From a virus (Duplodnaviria > Heunggongvirae > Uroviricota > Caudoviricetes): a stretch of 25,267 nucleotides of DNA. The position numbers and the translations under genes are program-made. Location: positions 1 through 25,267 of the IMG/VR virus record IMGVR_UViG_2684622620_000017; one strand, 5' to 3'. The notes beneath the pieces are model-generated. The model saw only the letters and a list, made by a program, of their open reading frames with translations. It made no database searches and had not been told where the DNA came from. Positions 1 to 12,919 of this stretch are shown piece by piece; position 1 is the stretch's first letter; every line of letters begins with the position of its first letter.

Positions 1-1053
1 TTACGGGGTAATGCCAACCGCTGCCGCCACTTTGTCGCCACTTGGCAGCGTTGCCAGAGGGTTGAAACGGAGCGCCGTTTCCAGATGATCCGGTGCCAGA
101 TGAGCGTAACGCATAGTCATTTTTATATCGTGATGTCCGAGGATTTTTTGCAAAGCAAGGATATTTCCACCCGACATCATGAAATGCGCCGCAAACGTAT
201 GGCGCAGAACGTGTGTCAGTTGACCGCGAGGGAGGACGATAGACGTTTTTTCCATCACGGATAAAAATTGAAAATAGCAGTCTGTGAAGAAATTGAACCC
301 ATCAAGCGCCATGATCTCTTCGTAAAGCTCTTTACTGATAGGGATGCTTCTGTTTTTCTTCCCCTTCGTTCTTACAAAGGTAATTCGGTATTTGGTCACC
401 TGTGAACGAGTAAGATTTACGGCTTCTCGCCAGCGTGCGCCTGTGCTTAAGCATATCTTAACTACCAGTGCCAGAATTGGGTCATGACGTTTGCAATCAG
501 CCAGTAATTCAACAATCTGCTCATGGGTAAGCCATGCCATCTCTTTTTCTGCGATGGTGAATTTTCGCATGTTCTCCAGTGGGTTCGGATACGACCATTC
601 GCCCAGGCGGGATAGTTCGCTAAAAACACTACTTAGATAGCTTTGCTCCAGGTTAATGGTGACCGGGCTTGCTCCTTTCTTCCATTTCTCGCTGAAGTAG
701 ATCTCACCTGTCAGGCGTTTATCTCGATAGTGGGCAAACATTTTAGAGGTTAGATCGGTTGCAAGGGGATTGCCCAGAGCGTCAACCATCAGCAGCAATT
801 TGTCATAGACATGCTGCCCAGCTGTCAGTGATTTACCATGTAGTTTGAACCATAGCTCAACCACGTCTTTCAGTGTTCGACGATCCACTGATTCACCTAG
901 CCAGGGCTTTGCTTCGGTTTCTTCCATCGTGTGACGCTCAAAAGCCAGTGCTTCGCCTTTGGTGGCGAATTGTTTACGCACACGACGTCCACTACGTCCG
1001 GCGGGGTAACATTCGCAAAGCCATTTTCCTGTGGTGAGTTTTCGTACTGCCAT
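1..1053 (-). CDS. int: Phage integrase, tyrosine site-specific recombinase (P2/186 type)
   Basis: 350-aa ORF; C-terminal catalytic region with conserved R...HxxR...Y-type residues (e.g. LRHTFAAH, MRYAHL); GGAGGG RBS upstream of the ATG at 1053; position at the prophage end next to the immunity region. Confidence 0.9.
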   Translation of the reverse strand: MAVRKLTTGKWLCECYPAGRSGRRVRKQFATKGEALAFERHTMEETEAKPWLGESVDRRTLKDVVELWFKLHGKSLTAGQHVYDKLLLMVDALGNPLATDLTSKMFAHYRDKRLTGEIYFSEKWKKGASPVTINLEQSYLSSVFSELSRLGEWSYPNPLENMRKFTIAEKEMAWLTHEQIVELLADCKRHDPILALVVKICLSTGARWREAVNLTRSQVTKYRITFVRTKGKKNRSIPISKELYEEIMALDGFNFFTDCYFQFLSVMEKTSIVLPRGQLTHVLRHTFAAHFMMSGGNILALQKILGHHDIKMTMRYAHLAPDHLETALRFNPLATLPSGDKVAAAVGITP

Positions 1054-1143: not shown

Positions 1144-1824
1144 TTAATGCATTTTAGTTACATCTATGTTTTTATTGATTGTCTCTTTGTTACTGGAAAG
1201 TCTTTGTTCTTTTCTTTTAATGTATAACTCCCAACGAATATTATTCATTATGATAGCGTAGATATTAAAAATAAAAGTCTTTACTACTAACACTAAGTAA
1301 ATAAGGCTAGTCCCTATAACACAGTATCCAAATTTAATAATTAATTCTTTTATCGATTTTGAATATGGAAATAAATCAATTATATTGCCAATTATTCCAT
1401 CTTTTTGACAAAAGAGAATTATTATTAGATAAATGAAAGTAAACGTAATAAATGAGATGAAAACTTTCATAAATGCCATAAAGTTATATTTTAACGTGGG
1501 CATCTGTGTTTTTTTATGTTGTATTGACATCATCTGAAGAAACATCTCGGGTTTGGATAGTGTTGCAAATATTGTGAAACCAGCAATGAGAAAACCTAAG
1601 GTTGTCACTGCAAAGTTAAAACCAATCAAAGCCCAGTTTCTAATGTCAGATACTAAATGAGACATATCCTTCTCAATAAAAAAAGAGTTTGTTAATAAAA
1701 AAATAGATGCTGTGAGCAAAATGCAAATATGGAATGTACTAATAGTAATCCGTTTGCAGAGCAAGTAAACATCCCAAAGGTTTTTCTCTTTGGTTATTTC
1801 TTTAGCATCTATTTTATTTATCAT
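1144..1824 (-). CDS. Hypothetical multi-pass inner-membrane protein (226 aa), distal gene of an AT-rich two-gene cassette; candidate membrane effector
   Basis: Translation shows 4-5 long hydrophobic segments (e.g. ITISTFHICILLTASIFLLTN, WALIGFNFAVTTLGFLIAGFTIFATL, FMAFMKVFISFITFTFIYLIIILF); AT-rich codon usage unlike flanking phage genes; start overlaps the stop of the upstream ORF (ATGA at 1821-1824). Confidence 0.7.
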   Translation of the reverse strand: MINKIDAKEITKEKNLWDVYLLCKRITISTFHICILLTASIFLLTNSFFIEKDMSHLVSDIRNWALIGFNFAVTTLGFLIAGFTIFATLSKPEMFLQMMSIQHKKTQMPTLKYNFMAFMKVFISFITFTFIYLIIILFCQKDGIIGNIIDLFPYSKSIKELIIKFGYCVIGTSLIYLVLVVKTFIFNIYAIIMNNIRWELYIKRKEQRLSSNKETINKNIDVTKMH

Positions 1825-2849
1825 CGACCAAACCTTTCATATATATTGCTAATAATTCTAATCGTCTTTTGTGAAAGAGAACGGGGTAGAGATATCTTAC
1901 CTTCTTCTACAAGATTTTCATACCGCTCATAACTTTCATTTGCAGCTACTACCGTATCCTTTGATAATTCATTCATCTCACTTAACAAAACAAAGTCATC
2001 ATTGCTACCTTTGATTATATCACCATTGTCATCATATCCTTTAATATTTATTCCTGAATTAGCCAATCTGGTTGCTGATGTGAGTTGTTCTAAAACAGCA
2101 CCATGATTCAAGCCTGAATCGGTGTTTGAAAAGCGAATAGATGTAGAAATACTTCCCATTTCGTCTCCGGCACTTTCAAGTGACTCCCAAAATTCGTCGT
2201 TATCAATTTCTTCTTGATTTGTAGGGAGAAGTTTTACTGAGACATTTTGGATTTTATTAAAATTATCAATAAATTGCTCTAGGCTTTGTTTGTCAGTTAA
2301 CGGCGTTATTCTTAGCTTCGGGCGTTTGATTTCGTTCCGTAAGCTTTTTTTAGTGACTCGAGGTAAGTCAGGGTTTTCTTTGCGTTCTTCTTGTGCGGTT
2401 TCGTATAAATGAGATATGTATTTTTCATATTCTATGTTTAAGAAACACTGACTTGTTGACTGAAAGTTTTGAATTGTGGGAGCACCACTAACTTCCTTGC
2501 AAAGAATTAATCTGTGAGTGTTTAATATTAGAAGAAAGAAAGAGCTCGGGGCTGTTTCAAGCTCTTTATGATCTTCAACCAAATCAGCACCATCAAATAC
2601 TTGTTCTCTGGTTAATAATGTATTCTTAATAATCCGACCTTTAATTCCGAGTACTGGGGGTGTTGCTTCTTCGTCAAGTATGACGCATTCAGTATCAATG
2701 AAAAAGAACTCTGATTTGTCAGATATTCTGCGGATGTTTGCCATCTCCAAAAAAGAGGGGAAAACAATTTCATCATAATAGTCTAGCAAAACATCATCAC
2801 CAAAACGGAGAGTATAATTTCCAAATTCGAGTTTTTTTATAAAATCCAT
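1821..2849 (-). CDS. Hypothetical soluble protein (342 aa), proximal gene of the AT-rich two-gene cassette; no family recognised
   Basis: Long AT-rich ORF; GAGG RBS about 8 nt upstream of the ATG at 2849; starts 15 nt downstream of the cI stop; no P-loop or other motif I can identify by eye. Confidence 0.7.
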   Translation of the reverse strand: MDFIKKLEFGNYTLRFGDDVLLDYYDEIVFPSFLEMANIRRISDKSEFFFIDTECVILDEEATPPVLGIKGRIIKNTLLTREQVFDGADLVEDHKELETAPSSFFLLILNTHRLILCKEVSGAPTIQNFQSTSQCFLNIEYEKYISHLYETAQEERKENPDLPRVTKKSLRNEIKRPKLRITPLTDKQSLEQFIDNFNKIQNVSVKLLPTNQEEIDNDEFWESLESAGDEMGSISTSIRFSNTDSGLNHGAVLEQLTSATRLANSGINIKGYDDNGDIIKGSNDDFVLLSEMNELSKDTVVAANESYERYENLVEEGKISLPRSLSQKTIRIISNIYERFGR

Positions 2850-2864
2850 TACTATGCCTCAAGA

Positions 2865-3743
2865 TTAAATAGTACGGTACTGTGAGAAAATTTTGGCAAC
2901 TAATTTTATATCTTCTTTTTCACAATCAAATGTTAAATCATCGTCTGTTACTCGAAGATTGCCTCCAGGTAATAGAAAAATTTGTTTTAACTTGAAATTA
3001 TTTTGGTATTGAACAATCCATCTTCCGTCTTCAACATTAGCTTTATTCATGTGTGCAATATTTATGCAATGTTCGTCTTCAATTGCGAGTAAATCATTAA
3101 AATGAGGAAGCAGGGACTTATCTATCAATAAATGACCAGCATCGAAAATTTGATTGTCAATAAGTTTTACTTTAGGAATTTCTAAAGCTTCACTTTCTTC
3201 GCTTCCAAGTTTTTGCCCGCGCCCAGTTGCTAACCATAAAAGAGAAGTTCTTGTTTCCAACGAGCATCTTATGATCCAGTCAGCTGGGAATGTGTCTCGC
3301 AAGTATCTATTCGCCATTGTGCTTTTAGACACATTCAAATGGTCGGCAAGTTCTTGTCTTGTTTTAAAGCCATACGCTTCCATTAGCCTGTTTATCGCAT
3401 TACGTCCACCTGAATCCAGATTTGGATGGTTCACAATTGGGTTCTCGTTGGTGGTGGCTTTGGGAACATATTGAACCAATGATGCTGGTTCCTCTAATTT
3501 AGCGGGAACTTCGGTATTCTTAGGAAATGGCACGCCTTTTCCGAATGAGAGCCACTCTATAGATGCTCCTGTTTCAATTGCACACTGAATTACCCAGTCA
3601 GCAGGAAATGCGTCACGCATCCAGCGCGTTCCCATAGTACTTGCAGATACATTGAACTGTTCACATAGGGCTTGCCGCGTCTTGAATCCATACGCTTCAA
3701 GCATGCGCGTTATGACTGCCTGTCCTCCGTTTTTGAAATTCAT
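2865..3743 (-). CDS. cI: 186-type CI immunity repressor with a tandem-duplicated N-terminal DNA-binding domain plus C-terminal domain; no LexA-like peptidase domain evident
   Basis: Two internally homologous segments (RMLEAYGFKTRQALCEQFNVSASTMGTRWMRDAFPADWVIQCAIETGASIEWL and RLMEAYGFKTRQELADHLNVSKSTMANRYLRDTFPADWIIRCSLETRTSLLWL) of the phage CI-repressor DNA-binding type. The maximal ORF begins at a GTG at 3776, but the first ATG (3743) has a better context and the GTG overlaps the putative rightward promoter, so 3743 is used. Confidence 0.8.
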   Translation of the reverse strand: MNFKNGGQAVITRMLEAYGFKTRQALCEQFNVSASTMGTRWMRDAFPADWVIQCAIETGASIEWLSFGKGVPFPKNTEVPAKLEEPASLVQYVPKATTNENPIVNHPNLDSGGRNAINRLMEAYGFKTRQELADHLNVSKSTMANRYLRDTFPADWIIRCSLETRTSLLWLATGRGQKLGSEESEALEIPKVKLIDNQIFDAGHLLIDKSLLPHFNDLLAIEDEHCINIAHMNKANVEDGRWIVQYQNNFKLKQIFLLPGGNLRVTDDDLTFDCEKEDIKLVAKIFSQYRTI

Positions 3744-3769
3744 CTGGTACGCCTTTGAGTAATATTGAG

Positions 3770-3798
3770 TTGACACTTCTCAAATGAAGAATTAATGT
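3770..3798 (+). promoter_or_regulatory. Candidate rightward early (lytic, pR-like) sigma70 promoter in the cI/apl switch region
   Basis: TTGACA at 3770-3775, 17-nt spacer, TAATGT at 3793-3798 (or ATTAAT with 15-nt spacer); repeated TTGAC motifs nearby could be operator half-sites; located between the divergent cI and apl-like genes. Confidence 0.4.
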
Positions 3799-5673: not shown

Positions 5674-6527
5674 GCACCATCCTGAAATGGGCGGGAAATA
5701 AAACCGCCATAATGTCCGAACTGAAAAAGCATCTTCCTGCTGGCCCACGACTGGTTGAACCTTTCGCGGGTTCCTGTGCAGTGATGATGGAGACGGATTA
5801 CCCCAGCTATCTTGTTGCGGATATTAATCCTGATTTAATCAACCTCTATAAAAAGGTTGCTGCTGATTGTGAGGCGTTTATATCTCGTGCCAGAGCTTTA
5901 TTTGAGGAAGCAAACAGGGAGGTGGCTTATTACAACATAAGGCAGGAGTTTAATTACTCCACTGAAATTACTGATTTCATGAAAGCGGTATATTTTCTGT
6001 ATCTCAATCGTCATGGTTACCGTGGGTTATGTCGCTATAACAAGAGCGGGTATTTCAACATTCCCTACGGTAATTATAAAAATCCGTATTTCCCTGAAAA
6101 AGAAATTCGCGCATTTGCAGAGAAAGCCCAGCGGGCAACGTTTATCTGCGCCAGCTTTGATGAAACGCTGGCGATGTTGAAGGCGGGGGATGTGGTGTAT
6201 TGCGATCCGCCGTATGACGGTACGTTTTCCGGCTATCACACTGATGGTTTCACTGAAGATGACCAGTATCACCTGGCATCCGTTCTTGAACATCGGTCAT
6301 CAGAAGGACATCCGGTCATTGTTTCTAACAGTGACACATCCCTGATCCGTTCGCTGTATCGCAATTTTACTCACCACTACATCAAGGCAAAACGCAGCAT
6401 CGGTGTGGCAGCTGGTGATAGTAAATCTGCAACAGAAATCATTGCTGTTTCCGGGGCGCGCTGCTGGGTGGGATTTGATCCTTCGCGTGGCGTAGATAGT
6501 TCTGCTGTGTACGAGGTGCGTGTATGA
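5670..6527 (+). CDS. Dam-like N6-adenine DNA methyltransferase (orphan, no cognate endonuclease in window)
   Basis: N-terminal AdoMet-binding-like motif (LKWAGNK...VEPFAGS) and catalytic DPPY motif ([11 protein letters not shown]); GGAGGTG RBS upstream of the ATG at 5670, which overlaps the upstream stop. Confidence 0.8.
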
Positions 6528-8938
6528 GTCATGACGATATGAGCAACTCTAGCGGCTTTAACGAGGCCGCTGCATCATTTTCATGGAACGGCCCGAAAAA
6601 GGCCATTAACCCTTATCTGGACCCGGCGGAATTTGCGCCGGAGTCTGCACTTTCAAACCTGATCACTCTGTATGCTGCCGATAACGAGCAGGAACAACTG
6701 CGCCGCGAGGCACTGAGTGAGCAGGTCTGGGAGCGTTATTTCTTTAATGAATCCCGTGATCCTGTCCAGCGCGAAATGGAGCAGGATAAGCTCATTAGCC
6801 GGGCAAAGCTGGCGCATGAGCAGCAGCGTTTTAATCCAGACATGGTCATTCTGGCTGACGTCAACGCCCAGCCTTCCCATATCAGCAAGCCGCTGATGCA
6901 ACGTATTGAATACTTCAGCAGTCTGGGCAGGCCAAAGGCTTATTCCCGCTATTTGCGTGAGACGATTAAGCCATGTCTGGAACGACTGGAGCATGTACGC
7001 GACAGTCAGCTATCCACTTCTTTTCGCTTTATGGCAAGCCATGAAGGGCTGGACGGCCTGCTGATCCTGCCTGAAATGAGTCAGGATCAGGTGAAACGCC
7101 TGTCTACCCTTGTCGCTGCGCATATGAGCATGTGTCTTGATGCCGCTTGTGGTGATTTGTACGCCACCGATGATGTTAAGCCAGAAGAAATCCGCAAGAC
7201 ATGGGAAAAGGTGGCAGCGGAAACCCTACGTTTGGATGTCATCCCGCCTGCGTTTGAGCAACTCCGTCGGAAAAGAAACCGCCGTAAACCCGTGCCCTAT
7301 GAACTCATTCCGGGCTCGCTGGCGCGTATGCTGTGCGCCGACTGGTGGTATCGGAAATTGTGGAAGATGCGTTGCGAATGGCGGGAAGAGCAGTTGCGTG
7401 CTGTCTGCCTGGTCAGCAAAAAAGCATCTCCCTATGTCAGCTATGAAGCTGTGATGCATAAACGTGAGCAGTGCCGTAAGTCGCTGGAGTTTTTCCGTTC
7501 TCATGAACTGGTGAACGAAGACGGAGACGCGCTGGATATGGAAGATGTGGTAAACGCCAGCTGCAGCAACCCGGCGCATCGCCGCAATGAGATGATGGCC
7601 TGTGTTAAAGGTCTGGAGCTTATCGCGGAAATGCGCGGTGACTGCGCCGTTTTCTACACCATTACCTGTCCGTCACGTTTCCATTCCACGCTCAATAACG
7701 GCAGACCCAATCCGACCTGGAAAAACGCGACGGTAAGACAAAGCAGCGATTATCTGGTCGGTATGTTTGCTGCATTTCGTAAGGCGATGCACAAAGCCGG
7801 GTTGCGCTGGTATGGCGTGCGGGTGGCTGAGCCGCATCACGACGGCACAGTTCACTGGCACCTGTTGTGTTTCATGCGCAAAAAAGACCGCCGCGCCATT
7901 ACTGCATTGTTGCGTAAGTTTGCTATCCGTGAAGACCGCGAGGAGCTGGGCAATAACACGGGGCCGCGCTTTAAGTCTGAGCTGATTAACCCGCGCAAAG
8001 GAACGCCGACAAGCTACATAGCGAAATACATCAGTAAGAACATTGACGGGCGTGGTCTGGCTGGCGAGATCAGCAAGGAAACGGGTAAATCCCTGCGTGA
8101 TAACGCTGAATACGTGAATGCCTGGGCGTCTTTGCATCGTGTTCAGCAATTCCGCTTCTTTGGTATTCCGGGGCGTCAGGCTTACCGTGAACTGCGATTG
8201 CTGGCTGGTCAGGCGGCAAGGCAGCAGGGTGACAAAAAAGCAGGTGTGCCGGTACTGGATAACCCGCGCCTTGATGCCATTCTGGCTGCTGCTGATGCTG
8301 GTTGTTTTGCCACCTATATCATGAAGCAGGGAGGTGTACTGGTTCCCCGTAAATATCACCTCATCAGAACTGCTTATGAAATTAACGAAGAGCCGACCGC
8401 CTATGGCGATCACGGTATTCGTATTTATGGCATCTGGTCACCCATTGCAGAGGGCAAGATCTGCACTCATGCAGTGAAGTGGAAAATGGTTCGTAAGGCC
8501 GTTGACGTTCAGGAGGCGGTAGCCGACCAGAGCGCTTGCGCCCCTTGGACTCGTGGCAATAACTGTCCCCTTGCTGAAAATTTGAACCAACAAGGGAAAG
8601 ACAAATCAGCTGATGGGGACTCCAGAACGGATATTACCCGTATGAATGACAAGGAGTTGCACGATTACCTGCACAGTATGAGCAAAAAAGAGCGCCGGGA
8701 ACTGGCTGCAAGGTTACGCCAGGTGAAACCGAAACGGCGTAAAGACTACAAACAGCGAATTACAGACCATCAGCGACAGCAGCTCGTCTATGAACTGAAG
8801 TCCAGGGGATTTGATGGCAGCGAGAAAGAAGTCGATTTGCTCCTTCGCGGCGGCAGTATTCCGTCAGGAGCAGGCCTGCGTATCTTCTATCGGAACCAGC
8901 GTCTGAAGGAAGATGATAAGTGGCGGAACCTGTATTAA
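6524..8938 (+). CDS. A: Replication initiation protein A (rolling-circle nicking endonuclease, P2 gpA type)
   Basis: 804-aa ORF; HUH-like motif (TVHWHLL) and paired active-site tyrosines (YIAKYISK) typical of P2 A protein; position after the early operon. Confidence 0.9.
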
Positions 8939-9030
8939 TTACGCGGGTTAACAATTCGTGCTCTTAATAATACCAGGCATATCAGGCCGATGAACGTAAA
9001 AAAACGTTTTACATCAGTAAGATTATTATA

Positions 9031-9050
9031 TACTGTAAATATAAACAGTG
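9031..9050. promoter_or_regulatory. LexA (SOS) box within the promoter region of the small-ORF/DinI-like operon
   Basis: tactgtaaatataaacagtg matches the CTGT-N8-ACAG palindrome with an AT-rich spacer; located about 40 bp upstream of a strong RBS (AGGAGG) and the ATG at 9091. Confidence 0.55.
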
Positions 9051-9090
9051 GTTATGTATACAGTATTGTTTTGGTGTCATAGGAGGAAAG

Positions 9091-9279
9091 ATGCAGGACT
9101 ATTTTTTGGAGTCTTTGAAGCTCCAGCGCATTGATTTTTTTCTTAAGCTTGTAGCGGCTAGTGAGTGTAGTGATGAAGAGAAGGGGCTGGCTCTGCAGTG
9201 GGTTTCTGAATTGACAGATGAACTCATGGCAAAAATCAGAAGCCACGAATACAACCGCTCAATGGATGTCATCAGCTGA
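9091..9279 (+). CDS. Small protein (62 aa) in an SOS-controlled operon; candidate Tum-like antirepressor (by position only)
   Basis: AGGAGG RBS 5 nt upstream of the ATG; LexA box upstream; followed 10 nt later by the DinI-like gene. In phage 186 the LexA-controlled operon at this genomic position encodes the antirepressor Tum; homology not verified. Confidence 0.5.
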   Translation: MQDYFLESLKLQRIDFFLKLVAASECSDEEKGLALQWVSELTDELMAKIRSHEYNRSMDVIS

Positions 9280-9289
9280 GGTGACTTTT

Positions 9290-9523
9290 ATGCGCATTGA
9301 AATAATGATCGATAAAGAGCAGAAGATTAGCCAGTCTACCCTGGACGCCCTTGAATCCGAGCTTTACCGCAATCTGCGCCCCCTGTATCCCAAAACGGTA
9401 ATTCGCATTCGCAAAGGTAGCTCTAACGGTGTGGAACTAACCGGACTGCAACTGGATGAAGAAAGAAAACAAGTGATGAAAATTATGCAGAAGGTGTGGG
9501 AGGACGACAGCTGGCTGCATTAA
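9290..9523 (+). CDS. DinI-family protein (damage-inducible, RecA modulator type)
   Basis: 77-aa protein MRIEIMIDKEQKISQSTLDALESELYRNL...QKVWEDDSWL has the DinI family pattern (MRIE... start, acidic C-terminus ending in W); GAGGTG RBS; downstream of the LexA box. Confidence 0.75.
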   Translation: MRIEIMIDKEQKISQSTLDALESELYRNLRPLYPKTVIRIRKGSSNGVELTGLQLDEERKQVMKIMQKVWEDDSWLH

Positions 9524-9531
9524 GAAATGTT

Positions 9532-9566
9532 GCCCCCAGGAGGATTCATTCTGATGGGGGCTAGTT
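9532..9566 (+). terminator. Candidate intrinsic terminator after the DinI-like gene
   Basis: GC-rich inverted repeat GCCCCCA (9532-9538) / TGGGGGC (9555-9561) followed by TAGTTTG; the loop is long (16 nt), so this is a weak call. Confidence 0.3.
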
Positions 9567-9715
9567 TGGGCAATGAGTGAAATAAGGCGTAAGGTGGGCG
9601 GTTATTTTGATAAGTGATCGTCCGCTTTGTGTCAGAAGCAGAAGTGGGAGTGTCTGAGACTCTCTAAAAGTTGATGATTCACTTACAAAACCATTTTCCT
9701 GATGGATGCTTACAC

Positions 9716-10051
9716 TTACGAATGATCATTCTGTTTAGTCTTCATGAGAAAATCCCGAATCTTTGCCAAGTTTGAATTTTCGGGGATTGAATCCATGTAC
9801 GGATCACGCTCAAACACTAATTGCTCAGATTCAACGAAAGCCTGCCACTCTACTGGGTCTAGCTCAAATCCCATTGCTGTCATATCACTTTCATCTTCCC
9901 CCTCGATCCAGTGGACTAAATAAAACAATTCATCATCAGGAGAATCATCCTCACCATCAACAATATCAACATCGGTTACAGTGATACGTAGGGTGGGATC
10001 GATTTTTGAAACATAAATTCCTAACTGTGGTATAGGGGGAATATTGTTCAT
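9716..10051 (-). CDS. Small, strongly acidic hypothetical protein (111 aa)
   Basis: AGGAG RBS about 8 nt upstream of the ATG at 10051; translation is rich in Asp/Glu (e.g. DVDIVDGEDDSPDDELF, EGEDESD); lies in the accessory region between the DinI-like gene and the cos-like motif. Confidence 0.6.
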   Translation of the reverse strand: MNNIPPIPQLGIYVSKIDPTLRITVTDVDIVDGEDDSPDDELFYLVHWIEGEDESDMTAMGFELDPVEWQAFVESEQLVFERDPYMDSIPENSNLAKIRDFLMKTKQNDHS

Positions 10052-10299
10052 GGAAACTCCTTTTATTGGTGTTTGCTATTTGAATAAAAATACGCCAAAC
10101 AGAGTGTTAACTGTGAATATGGAAAGAATCGTTGTAAGTACCCCGCTTAGGTGTCCCATTCTATTTTAGAGGTTCTCGTGCATATGGATTATGTTATCTG
10201 AAAGTTAACTTCCGCTTCCCGTTCACAGCGAACATTCATCTTTGTAAACCCGTATGATCCGTTTTTCAAGTGGCCATTCAGATACGGATTTTCACTTCC

Positions 10300-10329
10300 T
10301 TGACAGTGCATGACTATGCTGCATGAAAT
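10300..10329 (+). promoter_or_regulatory. Candidate sigma70 promoter in the accessory intergenic region
   Basis: Perfect -35 TTGACA at 10300-10305, 17-18-nt spacer, weak -10 (ATGAAA/TGAAAT) at about 10323-10329. Confidence 0.3.
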
Positions 10330-10363
10330 CGCATGATCGATTGAGGATCGTCTTTGCTCAGAT

Positions 10364-10386
10364 CCGCCAGAACTGGCGGGCTTTTG
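10364..10386 (+). terminator. Candidate intrinsic terminator (hairpin plus T-run) about 35 nt downstream of the candidate promoter
   Basis: CCGCCAG aa CTGGCGG inverted repeat (10364-10379) followed by GCTTTTG (10380-10386). Confidence 0.35.
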
Positions 10387-10430
10387 CTCATGTTATGCAT
10401 GTGCATGAAAACCACTGCATAAAGCGGGCA

Positions 10431-10449
10431 GGCGTGGCGGGGATACGAG
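10431..10449. other. cos-like motif (possible cohesive-end site)
   Basis: GGCGTGGCGGGGA matches the first 13 nt of the 19-nt cohesive end of 186/P2 as I recall it (GGCGTGGCGGGGAAAGCAT / GGCGAGGCGGGGAAAGCAC), then diverges; lies between the A-side accessory genes and the portal gene, as cos does in P2. Confidence 0.3.
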
Positions 10450-10582
10450 CGCGCGTTATGACAAATAGATGATTAGCCTGATTTATTTACAGCTGTATAA
10501 ATGATCACCTTGTAATTAGGTAAGTAATGTCTTCTATTATCATTGATTTGATAGGATTAATCTGTTTTTTGAGGATTAGAGG

Positions 10583-12919
10583 ATGATTGAAGAGGTAGTT
10601 ATTGACAAGGTAGGCTCATATAATGGCCCTACGCAGCTTTTACATGGACTTTCTAAATTTAACTATTTATATGGAGCTAATGGTGCAGGTAAAACAACTA
10701 TAAGTAAAATTATTAATGACCCTGAACAATATCCAACATGTCCGATTAAATGGAAAAATAATATATCTTTAATAAGCTACGTATATAATAAAGATTTTGT
10801 TGAAAGAAATTTTAGTCAAGATAAAATTAAAGGTGTATTTACCCTTGGTAGCGATCTTAAGGAGGATGAAGAGAAACTAATATCTCTTAAAGAAGAAAAA
10901 AATAAGCTAATGGAATCTATTATAGCAAAGGAAAAGTTAATAGATGGTGGTGATAATGAATTAGGCGTTATTAAAAAAATCGAAGACCATGAAAAATCTT
11001 TTAAAGATTCATGTTGGAAGCAAAAAGTAAAACATGACAATGTGTTCTCAAAGGCTTTTGAGGGATTAAGGAATAGTAGTGAAAAATTTAAAGCCAGAGT
11101 GTTGGCTGAGTATGAAAATAATACATCAGAAGTTTGCTCAATAGCAGAGTTAATTGAGAAAGCAAAAATTGTTTTTTCTACTGAATTGACATCACATGTA
11201 TCAATTACAATTCCATCCTTCAATGGGATAGATGATATTTTGAGTAGGGAAATTTGGAGTGAGCGTATTCTAGGGAAAAAAGACGTTAGTGTTTCAGACT
11301 TAATTACAATGCTCAATAATAGTGATTGGGTTAAGGAGGGTTTAACATATTTCAGTAAATCTAATCCCAAGTGCCCATTCTGCCAGCAGGATGTAAATGA
11401 TAATGTATTTGATAATCTTTCATCATATTTTGATAAAACATATGAGTTAAAAAAAAGAGAAATCGATGCATTGGTTTTACAATATGAATATCAACTTAAT
11501 AATATCTTGAAGGCGATAGATGATATAAGGGCGATTAAATCTCCATTCATAAATTATGAAGTGTTTGAGGATAAGGCTAAGATAGTATTATCTGAATTAA
11601 ACAAGAATTTTGAATTGGCAAAAAATAAACGCAATTTTTTAAGTGAATCAGTTCATTTTAGTGACTTAAGTGAAGTTGTTGATGATTTTATTTCTTTTTT
11701 GAATGATTCAAATCTATTGATAGATAATAATAACAAAATACATAGTAATAGAAAGGTAGAGGCTAGTAATCTTTCTAAGCAGATATGGGCATATATCGTA
11801 AAGGTGGAGTTAAAGTCTGAAATAACTTCTTACCGTAGCAAATCTGATAAATTTAATAGGACGTTACAAGGACTTAAATCTGGGATAGAAGAAGACAAAA
11901 AGAAGTTAATGTTAAATACTTCGGCTATTGAGGCAATTGAGTCTAATAAAACCAGTACTCTTCCAACTATTACAAAAATTAACAAGATTCTGGACTCTTA
12001 TGGCTTCAAAAATTTTTACTTAAAACCCTCCGAAGATAAAAAGCATTATATGATAGTGAGAGATAGTGGAGATAATGCTCGTACAACCCTTAGTGAGGGA
12101 GAAAAGACATTTATCACTTTTTTGTACTTTTATAGCCTTGTTAGAGGGAGTGATAATGCATCAGGTGTTTTAGATGATCGTGTTGTAGTATTTGATGATC
12201 CAATTTCAAGTTTAGATAGTGATATTCTGTTTATTGTAAGTTCGTTGATTAAAGATTTAATGGAGGATGTTCGTAAGGATGAAGGAAATATTAAGCAAAT
12301 TATATTCCTTACTCATAATATTTATTTTCATAAAGAGTTGACTTTTAATACCAAAAGATCCGGTAATCAAGCAATGAAAGAGGAGACTTTTTGGATTGTA
12401 AGGAAAAAAGGGAAGGTTTCATATCTTGAAAAGTGCGAATCAAACCCAATAAAAACGTCTTATGATTTGCTCTGGTGCGAATTGAGAAGAACAGACATTA
12501 ATAATAATACTATACAAAATACAATGCGAAGGATTTTGGAGAATTACTTTAAGATATTAGGTGGGATGGATATTAGGAAGCTTGAGTGTCATTTTTATGG
12601 TGATGAAAAAATCATATTTAAATCTTTAGTGTCATGGATTAATGATGGTTCTCATTTTGCAGGTGATGATCTTTATATGAATTTAGATACGGAGTCTGTG
12701 CAAAAATATTTAATTGTTTTTCAGAAGATATTTGAATGTAGTGAGCATACTGCCCATTACAAAATGATGATGGGTGAGTTTTATAAACCGTTAAATGAGT
12801 CACTTCATCTACAAAATGAGTTTGATATAGATGATAGTGCGAATGATGAGTATGCTTCGTCAAAAATTGAGATAAAAGATGGAATAAACACATCTCTACA
12901 TAGCAACACATATTTGTAA
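10583..12919 (+). CDS. AT-rich 778-aa ABC-type (Rad50/SMC-like) ATPase with coiled-coil insertion and CxxC motif; RloC/PrrC-like candidate anticodon nuclease / abortive-infection protein
   Basis: Walker A GANGAGKTT near the N-terminus; ABC signature-like LSEGEKT, Walker B/D-loop VVVFDDPISSLD and H-loop FLTHN about 480-560 aa downstream; long Lys/Glu-rich, likely coiled-coil insertion with a central CPFC (zinc-hook-like); C-terminal region has RRILE (R-x3-E) followed by conserved His candidates, reminiscent of the PrrC Arg-Glu-His nuclease triad; strong RBS GAGGATTAGAGG. Confidence 0.6.
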   Translation: MIEEVVIDKVGSYNGPTQLLHGLSKFNYLYGANGAGKTTISKIINDPEQYPTCPIKWKNNISLISYVYNKDFVERNFSQDKIKGVFTLGSDLKEDEEKLISLKEEKNKLMESIIAKEKLIDGGDNELGVIKKIEDHEKSFKDSCWKQKVKHDNVFSKAFEGLRNSSEKFKARVLAEYENNTSEVCSIAELIEKAKIVFSTELTSHVSITIPSFNGIDDILSREIWSERILGKKDVSVSDLITMLNNSDWVKEGLTYFSKSNPKCPFCQQDVNDNVFDNLSSYFDKTYELKKREIDALVLQYEYQLNNILKAIDDIRAIKSPFINYEVFEDKAKIVLSELNKNFELAKNKRNFLSESVHFSDLSEVVDDFISFLNDSNLLIDNNNKIHSNRKVEASNLSKQIWAYIVKVELKSEITSYRSKSDKFNRTLQGLKSGIEEDKKKLMLNTSAIEAIESNKTSTLPTITKINKILDSYGFKNFYLKPSEDKKHYMIVRDSGDNARTTLSEGEKTFITFLYFYSLVRGSDNASGVLDDRVVVFDDPISSLDSDILFIVSSLIKDLMEDVRKDEGNIKQIIFLTHNIYFHKELTFNTKRSGNQAMKEETFWIVRKKGKVSYLEKCESNPIKTSYDLLWCELRRTDINNNTIQNTMRRILENYFKILGGMDIRKLECHFYGDEKIIFKSLVSWINDGSHFAGDDLYMNLDTESVQKYLIVFQKIFECSEHTAHYKMMMGEFYKPLNESLHLQNEFDIDDSANDEYASSKIEIKDGINTSLHSNTYL

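Follow-up and report, generated by a model that had tools for sequence, protein, structure and literature searches.

What is the function of a small, extremely acidic protein that is encoded on the edge of a phage defence hotspot, opposite a large ATPase gene? This question is raised by an open reading frame in a stretch of viral DNA of 25,267 nucleotides (IMG/VR record IMGVR_UViG_2684622620_000017, positions 1 to 25,267; hereafter the window), for which a first-pass annotation, made from the sequence alone, had proposed two possible roles: that of a DNA mimic directed against host defence, or that of a factor neutralizing the neighbouring ATPase/nuclease candidate. The gene and its ribosome binding site are located as follows:

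9716..10051, minus strand: coding sequence of 111 aa plus stop, with an ATG start (ORF list, phrog_17127 match, RefSeq identity)
10057..10062, minus strand: Shine-Dalgarno sequence AAGGAG, 5 nt upstream of the ATG (read from the sequence)

The descriptive part of that annotation holds: the protein is small and strongly acidic and belongs to a phage accessory region, its gene is preceded by a good ribosome binding site, and it diverges from the gene of the 778-aa AAA_13 ATPase (10583-12919, plus strand), with a start-to-start gap of 531 bp. Calculation of charge and pI gives 26 acidic residues (15 Asp and 11 Glu, 23%) against seven basic ones (four Lys, three Arg), a net charge of about -19 at pH 7 and a pI of about 3.6 by our own titration, the Biopython value of 4.05 being the floor of that algorithm. 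The acidic residues form clusters at residues 27-41 (DVDIVDGEDDSPDDE) and 50-56 (EGEDESD). Since relatives with only 30–40% identity are still acidic (net charge -7 to -19, median -16; pI no higher than 4.7, with a single miscalled protein as the exception), the charge itself is under selection.

The ORF is a genuine gene under purifying selection. Pairwise dN/dS values between the window copy and those of Serratia, Symbiopectobacterium, Lonsdalea, Proteus and Buttiauxella range from 0.07 to 0.22, and the start codon and ribosome binding site are conserved across genera, with AAAGGA or AAGGAG kept upstream of the gene in five others. Of 5426 complete E. coli genomes, 214 carry the gene, among them those of the laboratory strains B, BL21(DE3), C41 and C43, and the blocks of the assembly collection that list the exact protein sequence number 19,248. 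In BL21(DE3), whose prophage is defective, the locus is ECD_RS04420. A handful of copies (P0039, P0043, P0054) are frameshifted or truncated, which is what would be expected of a spurious or decaying ORF without function, but set against the selection, conservation and distribution just described, this explanation is highly improbable. Domain fusions within the family were also considered and rejected, as the longer members are miscalled starts or frameshifted copies. Regarding expression, no sigma-70 promoter site matching at least 9 of 12 consensus positions was found within 9000-10700, no LexA box upstream of the ORF, and no Rfam family in or around it. Control by the SOS response was dismissed as well, the only LexA boxes of the window lying at 9033-9048 and 1085-1100, neither of them upstream of the ORF.

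The protein is identical to RefSeq WP_001059831.1, which is called “DUF8087 domain-containing protein” in newer annotation, and matches phrog_17127 over positions 1-111 of 111 (E 2e-70), a PHROG annotated as of unknown function. PF26332 is assigned to all homologues, including the cluster with 98–100% identity and the gene itself in 10 loci; this assignment is a precomputed annotation, as the local Pfam copy was without the model and hence gave no direct hmmscan match. By these matches, the window protein is a full-length member of an already catalogued, uncharacterised family. Its Enterobacterales homologues form 61 clusters at 90% identity, and the relatives recovered when 1.84 billion representatives were searched exhaustively by HMM number only 34, counted at 50% identity. 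The homology expected for a known anti-restriction protein was not found: there was no match at E up to 1 in Pfam, including the models of Ocr and ArdA, in PHROG besides phrog_17127, or among the defence models of PADLOC-DB 2.0 (0 families), no match in NCBIfam, and none in a PDB sequence search at E up to 10. Profile and PDB sequence searches likewise detected no enzymatic or DNA-binding domain. A tblastn search of the phage GenBank collection (50,697 deposited phage records) returned no copy of DUF8087, and the gene was seen only in prophages and IMG/VR contigs. The literature search found no paper mentioning DUF8087, WP_001059831 or phrog_17127.

On sequence grounds, the window is a 186/P2-like (Peduoviridae) E. 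coli prophage, whose features around the gene are, in order:

1-1053, minus strand: integrase
1144-2849, minus strand: two ORFs that separate the integrase from the CI repressor (226 aa, 342 aa), with no Pfam or PADLOC match
2865-3776, minus strand: 186-type CI repressor
between the CI repressor and gpA: CII, then Dam methylase
6524-8938, plus strand: gpA replication endonuclease
9033-9048: LexA box, upstream of tumA
9091-9523, plus strand: 62-aa ORF and DinI-like protein (TumB-like by the Fels-2 annotation)
10301-10306: TTGACA by the ~150-nt element
10305-10458: conserved ~150-nt element, the left boundary of cargo swapping
10323-10472, plus strand: 49-aa ORF (MKSHDRLRIVFAQIRQNWRAFAHVMHVHENHCIKRAGVAGIRARA...) in the ~150-nt element, whose C-terminus switches exactly at the cargo junction
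10363-10380: terminator-like hairpin in the ~150-nt element
10583-12919, plus strand: AAA_13 (PF13166) ATPase of 778 aa, 30% GC, PADLOC candidate PDC-S06 (E 1.6e-266)
downstream of the ATPase in gene order: portal gpQ and terminase

The interval between gpA and gpQ is a published P2 defence hotspot (PMC9122126; PMC13586616), which in E. coli is the site of old, tin and retrons (PMC9122126). DUF8087 occupies its left flank, in a slot between the SOS-controlled TumA/TumB(DinI) genes, to whose transcript it is convergent, and the conserved 150-nt element. The interval from DinI/TumB to this element (9524-10304) is a small variable slot of its own: its counterpart is empty in Yersinia phage MLG42, is filled by STM2726, a protein of 243 aa, in Fels-2, and, in the variant lineage L051 of E. 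coli, by DUF8087 together with a fragment of an integrase, a transmembrane (TM) protein of 127 aa and a further protein of 139 aa. The ~150-nt element is found at 80–95% identity in 1303 of 5426 E. coli genomes, as well as in Fels-2, SopEPhi, Yersinia MLG42 and many Klebsiella P2-like phages; it has no Rfam match, and may act in transcription, as a terminator or promoter, or else anchor recombination at the hotspot. The window contains two perfect LexA-type palindromes (CTGT-N8-ACAG), compared with 0.2 expected by chance. The one at 9033-9048 precedes the pair of 62-aa ORF and DinI-like gene, in the manner of the p95/tum SOS control of 186, and the one at 1085-1100 lies between the integrase start and the 226-aa ORF. 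In other P2-like phages, the int-cI interval is where DUF8087 has its ancestral place; according to the literature, it is also a minor P2 defence hotspot. The AAA_13 ATPase is a predicted defence protein, modelled in PADLOC as the single-gene candidate system PDC-S06, and its C-terminus has weak similarities to PrrC and LmuB.

Is the acidic protein the cognate inhibitor, antitoxin or immunity partner of this ATPase, as had been suggested as an alternative to DNA mimicry? The distribution of the gene refutes the idea. The identical protein WP_001059831.1 adjoins at least 17 unrelated cargos, plus one locus without cargo, and in many prophages that have it in the same place, gpA is at least 95% identical but the cargo between DUF8087 and gpQ differs. 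The cargos comprise the retron St85/Ec86 effector with its reverse transcriptase (RT; in BL21(DE3) and other E. coli B derivatives), retron Ec67, two further RT genes, RT with AAA and a 222-aa protein, two versions of GmrSD, AAA_21/AAA_15, AAA_13, SieB, DUF4145, PIN_12, Schlafen/AlbA_2 with HATPase_c_4, TIR/SEFIR, DprA with a 191-aa protein (a domain content that resembles the published DprA-PRTase system), an ORC/AAA_16 ATPase, SIR2_2 with two more genes, and two small ORFs without domain matches; in one locus (L044) the interval is almost empty (584 bp). Close DUF8087 homologues also occur with no AAA_13 gene nearby, so that the conserved co-occurrence typical of a toxin-antitoxin or immunity pair is missing. 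Moreover, the homology common to most E. coli copies stops at the ~150-nt element, i.e., between the DUF8087 gene and the cargo, the GC content of the ATPase gene is 30% compared with 40% for the DUF8087 ORF, and PADLOC treats PDC-S06 as a system of a single gene. A dedicated partnership with the ATPase has hardly any probability left, and the proposal can be dropped whichever function holds for DUF8087.

The unit that is inherited together is instead delimited by comparison with other genera:

9680..10229: mobile cassette of ~550 bp, consisting of upstream region, ORF and integrase scar (blastn)
10052..10229, minus strand: conserved upstream region of ~180 nt, with 85–88% nucleotide identity to the Serratia, Symbiopectobacterium, Lonsdalea and Proteus loci
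9679..9729, minus strand: 5' remnant of a P2-type integrase, its first 16 codons (MIIRKCKHPSGKWFCK*), overlapping the last 14 nt of the DUF8087 ORF (translation)

When positions 9300-10700 are compared by blastn with these four loci (L024-L027), the alignment runs from 9680 to 10173-10229 at 84.5–88% identity, with unrelated flanks on either side. The cassette thus delimited consists of 180 nt upstream, the ORF and 36 nt downstream, and the upstream region presumably serves as its own promoter and leader. A longer integrase remnant of 71 codons, 62 of which align to int, is retained in other copies (L051/L053, L024, L026). P2-like phages of other Enterobacterales (L028, identical to L060, from Buttiauxella, and L059 and L061-L063) carry in succession an HTH_3-type C repressor, a 209–211-aa protein with a C-terminal TM segment, DUF8087 and an intact integrase, whose start overlaps the DUF8087 stop by 11–14 nt in four of the five (L059, L061, L062, L063) and lies about 620 nt further downstream in L060. 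Because of this gene order, the ancestral site is placed between repressor and integrase; we read the arrangement as a lysogeny operon, and the integrase remnant as the scar of an ancestral position directly upstream of int. The E. coli 186-like lineage carries a translocated copy, which brought the first codons of int along. In the Buttiauxella-type P2-like phages (L062, 4932-5979), the C-terminus of the C repressor (GQGNRVAGRDYSENKK) and the N-terminus of the next ORF (GKENRTAGRDFHESN) have a short motif in common. The product of that next ORF, a 209-aa protein with a TM segment at its C-terminus, matches no family and is a candidate exclusion protein encoded upstream of DUF8087.

The ancestral gene order raises the possibility that DUF8087 modulates the lysogeny of its own element, as a mimic of operator or arm-site DNA that would bind the integrase or the immunity repressor and thereby tune integration, excision or induction. 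The overlap of the DUF8087 stop with the int start in the four phages named above suggests translational coupling, a fragment of int still travels with the cassette, and in small gpA-replicon islands DUF8087 adjoins the integrase, divergent from an operon of AlpA-like protein and gpA. A precedent for an acidic SH3-fold antirepressor is provided by CarS. Against this role, copies that have been separated from an intact int or C repressor (in the window, Serratia, Symbiopectobacterium, Lonsdalea, Proteus, and a class with ~90% identity in 81 E. coli genomes) are still intact, with dN/dS of 0.07–0.20; the gene is also carried by an inovirus-like element and by ICE-like islands whose recombinases are unrelated; and the window integrase is only about 50% identical to the integrases that were originally coupled with DUF8087. 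Since so many copies persist without that integrase, modulation of lysogeny is weakened to the third-ranked explanation, and we regard it as improbable.

The settings of the gene elsewhere are diverse. Copies were found on ICE-like islands with AlpA, DUF2857 and type IV secretion genes, in a non-P2 tailed prophage adjoining the trypsin-like gene of PDC-S45, on an inovirus-like element of Xenorhabdus, and on a Proteus island adjoining PD-T7-1. The ~90% identical copy in 81 E. coli genomes lies beside a 127-aa TM protein and a 1589-aa DEAD helicase, and one copy in Pantoea is a chromosomal orphan. Distant, shorter relatives (Nitrosospira and metagenomes) reside on small islands of integrase, AlpA-like protein and gpA-family replicase, with a TIR-STAND protein, SRA-HNH plus Hachiman, or BglII R-M plus Gabija as cargo. 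These islands (L014 and L017-L021, from Nitrosospira and metagenomic contigs), in which the AlpA-like protein is of the HTH_17 type and the replicase belongs to the Phage_GPA family, resemble a beta-proteobacterial counterpart of defence-carrying satellites and islands. They had prompted the idea of a functional link to gpA, which was down-weighted on account of close copies that have no gpA within 6–8 kb, their backgrounds being ICE-like, inovirus-like or those of other prophages.

Two further observations concern sequences that accompany the family. The 127-aa protein (MDTLSI(K/N)GIFEVFVNNWVPGIFTFFLG...), with its TM segment at the N-terminus, repeatedly follows DUF8087 and the integrase fragment, namely at:

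8538-8921 of L026 (Lonsdalea)
8538-8921 of L027 (Proteus, where PD-T7-1 comes next)
6538-6921 of L051 (the E. coli prophage variant)
6416-6799 of L066 (an example of the ~90% identity E. coli island class, where the 1589-aa DEAD/DEAH helicase comes next)

This protein, for which Pfam gave no match, is possibly an optional partner; the window lacks it. The beta-proteobacterial members of the family carry a basic N-terminal motif, MGQAK(L/N)RG(S/T)xEERIAQ, ahead of the domain. The same motif forms the N-terminus of unrelated small proteins, e.g., zinc-ribbon-like CxxC proteins of 104–115 aa (L069-L101, metagenome contigs), which points to a conserved segment at the 5' end of the gene, to which different C-terminal modules can be joined. 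A metagenome scan with the beta-proteobacterial subgroup was set aside, as it returned mostly unrelated small proteins that match only via the N-terminal MGQAKxRG..RIAQ.

These neighbourhoods, together with the ancestral gene order, bring up another role, in which the protein is produced constitutively in the lysogen as an exclusion or defence factor and sequesters one of the DNA- or RNA-binding proteins that a superinfecting phage or satellite brings in (for instance a repressor, an antirepressor, a Cox/Apl-like protein, SSB or the small terminase subunit), so that the lysogen is protected or competitors are harmed. The ancestral place, after the C repressor and the 209–211-aa TM protein and directly before int, is a classic one for lysogenic-conversion and exclusion genes. 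The gene is usually surrounded by defence genes, and its neighbours elsewhere include PD-T7-1, PDC-S45, SRA-HNH, Hachiman, Gabija, the TIR-STAND protein and the 1589-aa DEAD helicase. The E. coli copy lies in the very hotspot that holds old, tin and retrons (PMC9122126). On the other hand, DUF8087 matches no PADLOC model and occurs with and without any given partner. We know of no single-gene defence protein of 111 aa that lacks both an enzymatic and a membrane domain. Exclusion takes second rank, on the strength of the gene order between repressor and integrase and of the defence islands around the gene, and seems unlikely overall; to these two lines of evidence, gene order and defence neighbours, it fits about as well as anti-defence does.

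Does the structure of the protein point to a mechanism? Two AlphaFold runs agree with each other, one with 35 sequences (pLDDT 67.6) and one with 43 more diverse sequences (pLDDT 78.4, pTM 0.63). They predict an SH3/Tudor-like beta-barrel that bears acidic loops and has a helix at its C-terminus. In the models, strands span residues 11-15, 22-31, 43-50, 61-64 and 78-81, helices span 66-76 (packed on the barrel), 84-87 (short) and 94-108 (C-terminal), and the acidic loops comprise 32-42 and 51-60. The barrel core is predicted with confidence (84–94), and the most acidic loop, 32-42, scores low (59). This loop is probably flexible, and may be a floppy acidic tail instead of a rigid array that mimics phosphates. 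The top structural neighbours of the models are VapX (of VapXD), the Tudor-like RNAP-interacting domains of CarD, Mfd and UvrD, FeoA, and DUF1653, and it is to such small SH3-like antitoxins and adaptors that the DUF8087 models are closest in fold. Ocr and ArdA are both absent from the fold-search lists, and neither by sequence nor by fold was there a match to either of them or to any characterised protein. The prediction is thus an SH3-like beta-barrel that is not Ocr- or ArdA-like, and the resemblance to known anti-restriction proteins that DNA mimicry had brought to mind is not borne out at the level of fold.

The likeness to Ocr (T7 gp0.3) and ArdA is confined to the size class, the extreme negative charge and the occurrence as single genes on mobile elements. 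The structures of Ocr and ArdA are elongated, Ocr being an elongated helical dimer that mimics bent B-DNA, whereas DUF8087 is predicted to be a beta-barrel monomer; profile searches with Pfam and PHROG link it to neither protein at E up to 1, and for ArdA in particular both a Pfam match and a fold match are lacking. A closer comparison is offered by CarS of Myxococcus xanthus, an acidic (pI 4.1–4.8) mimic of operator DNA with SH3 topology, which sequesters the recognition helix of the CarA repressor (PMC2926617). Like CarS (PDB 2KSS), the DUF8087 protein is small and very acidic and has no DNA-binding motif of its own, and to judge by the models it may also share the five-stranded SH3-like beta fold; by analogy, it might plausibly sequester a basic DNA-recognition surface as well. 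The pI values of known DNA mimics lie between 3.8 and 5.5, and their targets are restriction and repair enzymes, gyrase and histone-like proteins (PMC2926617). With a pI of 3.6, a net charge of -19 and the conservation of acidity across the family, DUF8087 shows the acidity that characterizes this class.

We therefore return to the first of the two roles proposed for the protein, with which its charge, size and location on mobile elements are compatible. Our preferred reading, to which we assign a probability of roughly 35%, is that DUF8087 is a stoichiometric acidic decoy, i.e., a nucleic-acid mimic that blocks a DNA-binding protein, most likely for counter-defence. Having no catalytic motifs, the protein would probably act stoichiometrically: a negatively charged, nucleic-acid-like surface would be presented on a rigid beta-barrel, which might dock onto the basic DNA-binding surface of its target and sequester it. 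The cassette serves many element types, namely P2-like phages, another tailed prophage, an inovirus-like element, ICE-like islands and small gpA-replicon islands, and the target is therefore expected to be a host or competitor protein that is common in Enterobacterales and not the product of a neighbouring gene. Most likely, a restriction or DNA-sensing immune protein would be inhibited during establishment or maintenance of the element. Among the small, highly acidic proteins that mobile elements carry as single-gene cassettes and whose function is known, most inhibit host DNA-binding defence or repair proteins; examples are Ocr, ArdA, Arn, Gam, Ugi and several Acrs. Counter-defence is ranked first because the cassette serves unrelated elements and because known proteins of like size and charge are mostly inhibitors. 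Acidity alone is weak support for a decoy, as antitoxins, chaperones and immunity proteins are acidic, too. Among 1511 P2-like prophages surveyed, the anti-defence genes recognised were confined to Anti_RM and Anti_CRISPR, in 28 elements (PMC13586616), and DUF8087 is accordingly not among the recognised ones.

A more far-reaching form of the acidic decoy, which we put forward quite tentatively, is that DUF8087 represents an unrecognised SH3-fold decoy family that is swapped as a plug-in cassette and disables a DNA-binding immune or regulatory protein. Such a family would operate on the mobile elements of Enterobacterales, with a shorter form in beta-proteobacteria. Candidate targets would be a restriction or other DNA-sensing defence complex, or the repressor of a rival prophage; in the latter case, DUF8087 would be a weapon of inter-prophage warfare.

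New here are the autonomous 550-bp cassette with its integrase scar, the invariance of DUF8087 beside at least 17 alternative defence cargos, including that of BL21(DE3), and the predicted SH3-like fold. The gpA-gpQ hotspot of P2/186 is a model for the rapid swapping of defence systems, and in one widespread E. coli prophage lineage DUF8087 is the constant companion on its flank, while as a 550-bp cassette it has moved among phages, ICE-like and other islands of several genera. If it should turn out to have no phenotype, DUF8087 would be an ordinary uncharacterised accessory gene. Should it act as an inhibitor of a defence or regulatory protein, the few inhibitors of the DNA-mimic type would gain a new fold, distinct from those of Ocr and ArdA, and the gene could help explain how elements that carry defence cargo become established. 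In E. coli B, BL21(DE3) and C41/C43 the gene adjoins retron Ec86, and if the protein is indeed an acidic decoy, its influence on phage and plasmid biology in these standard laboratory strains would so far have gone unnoticed.
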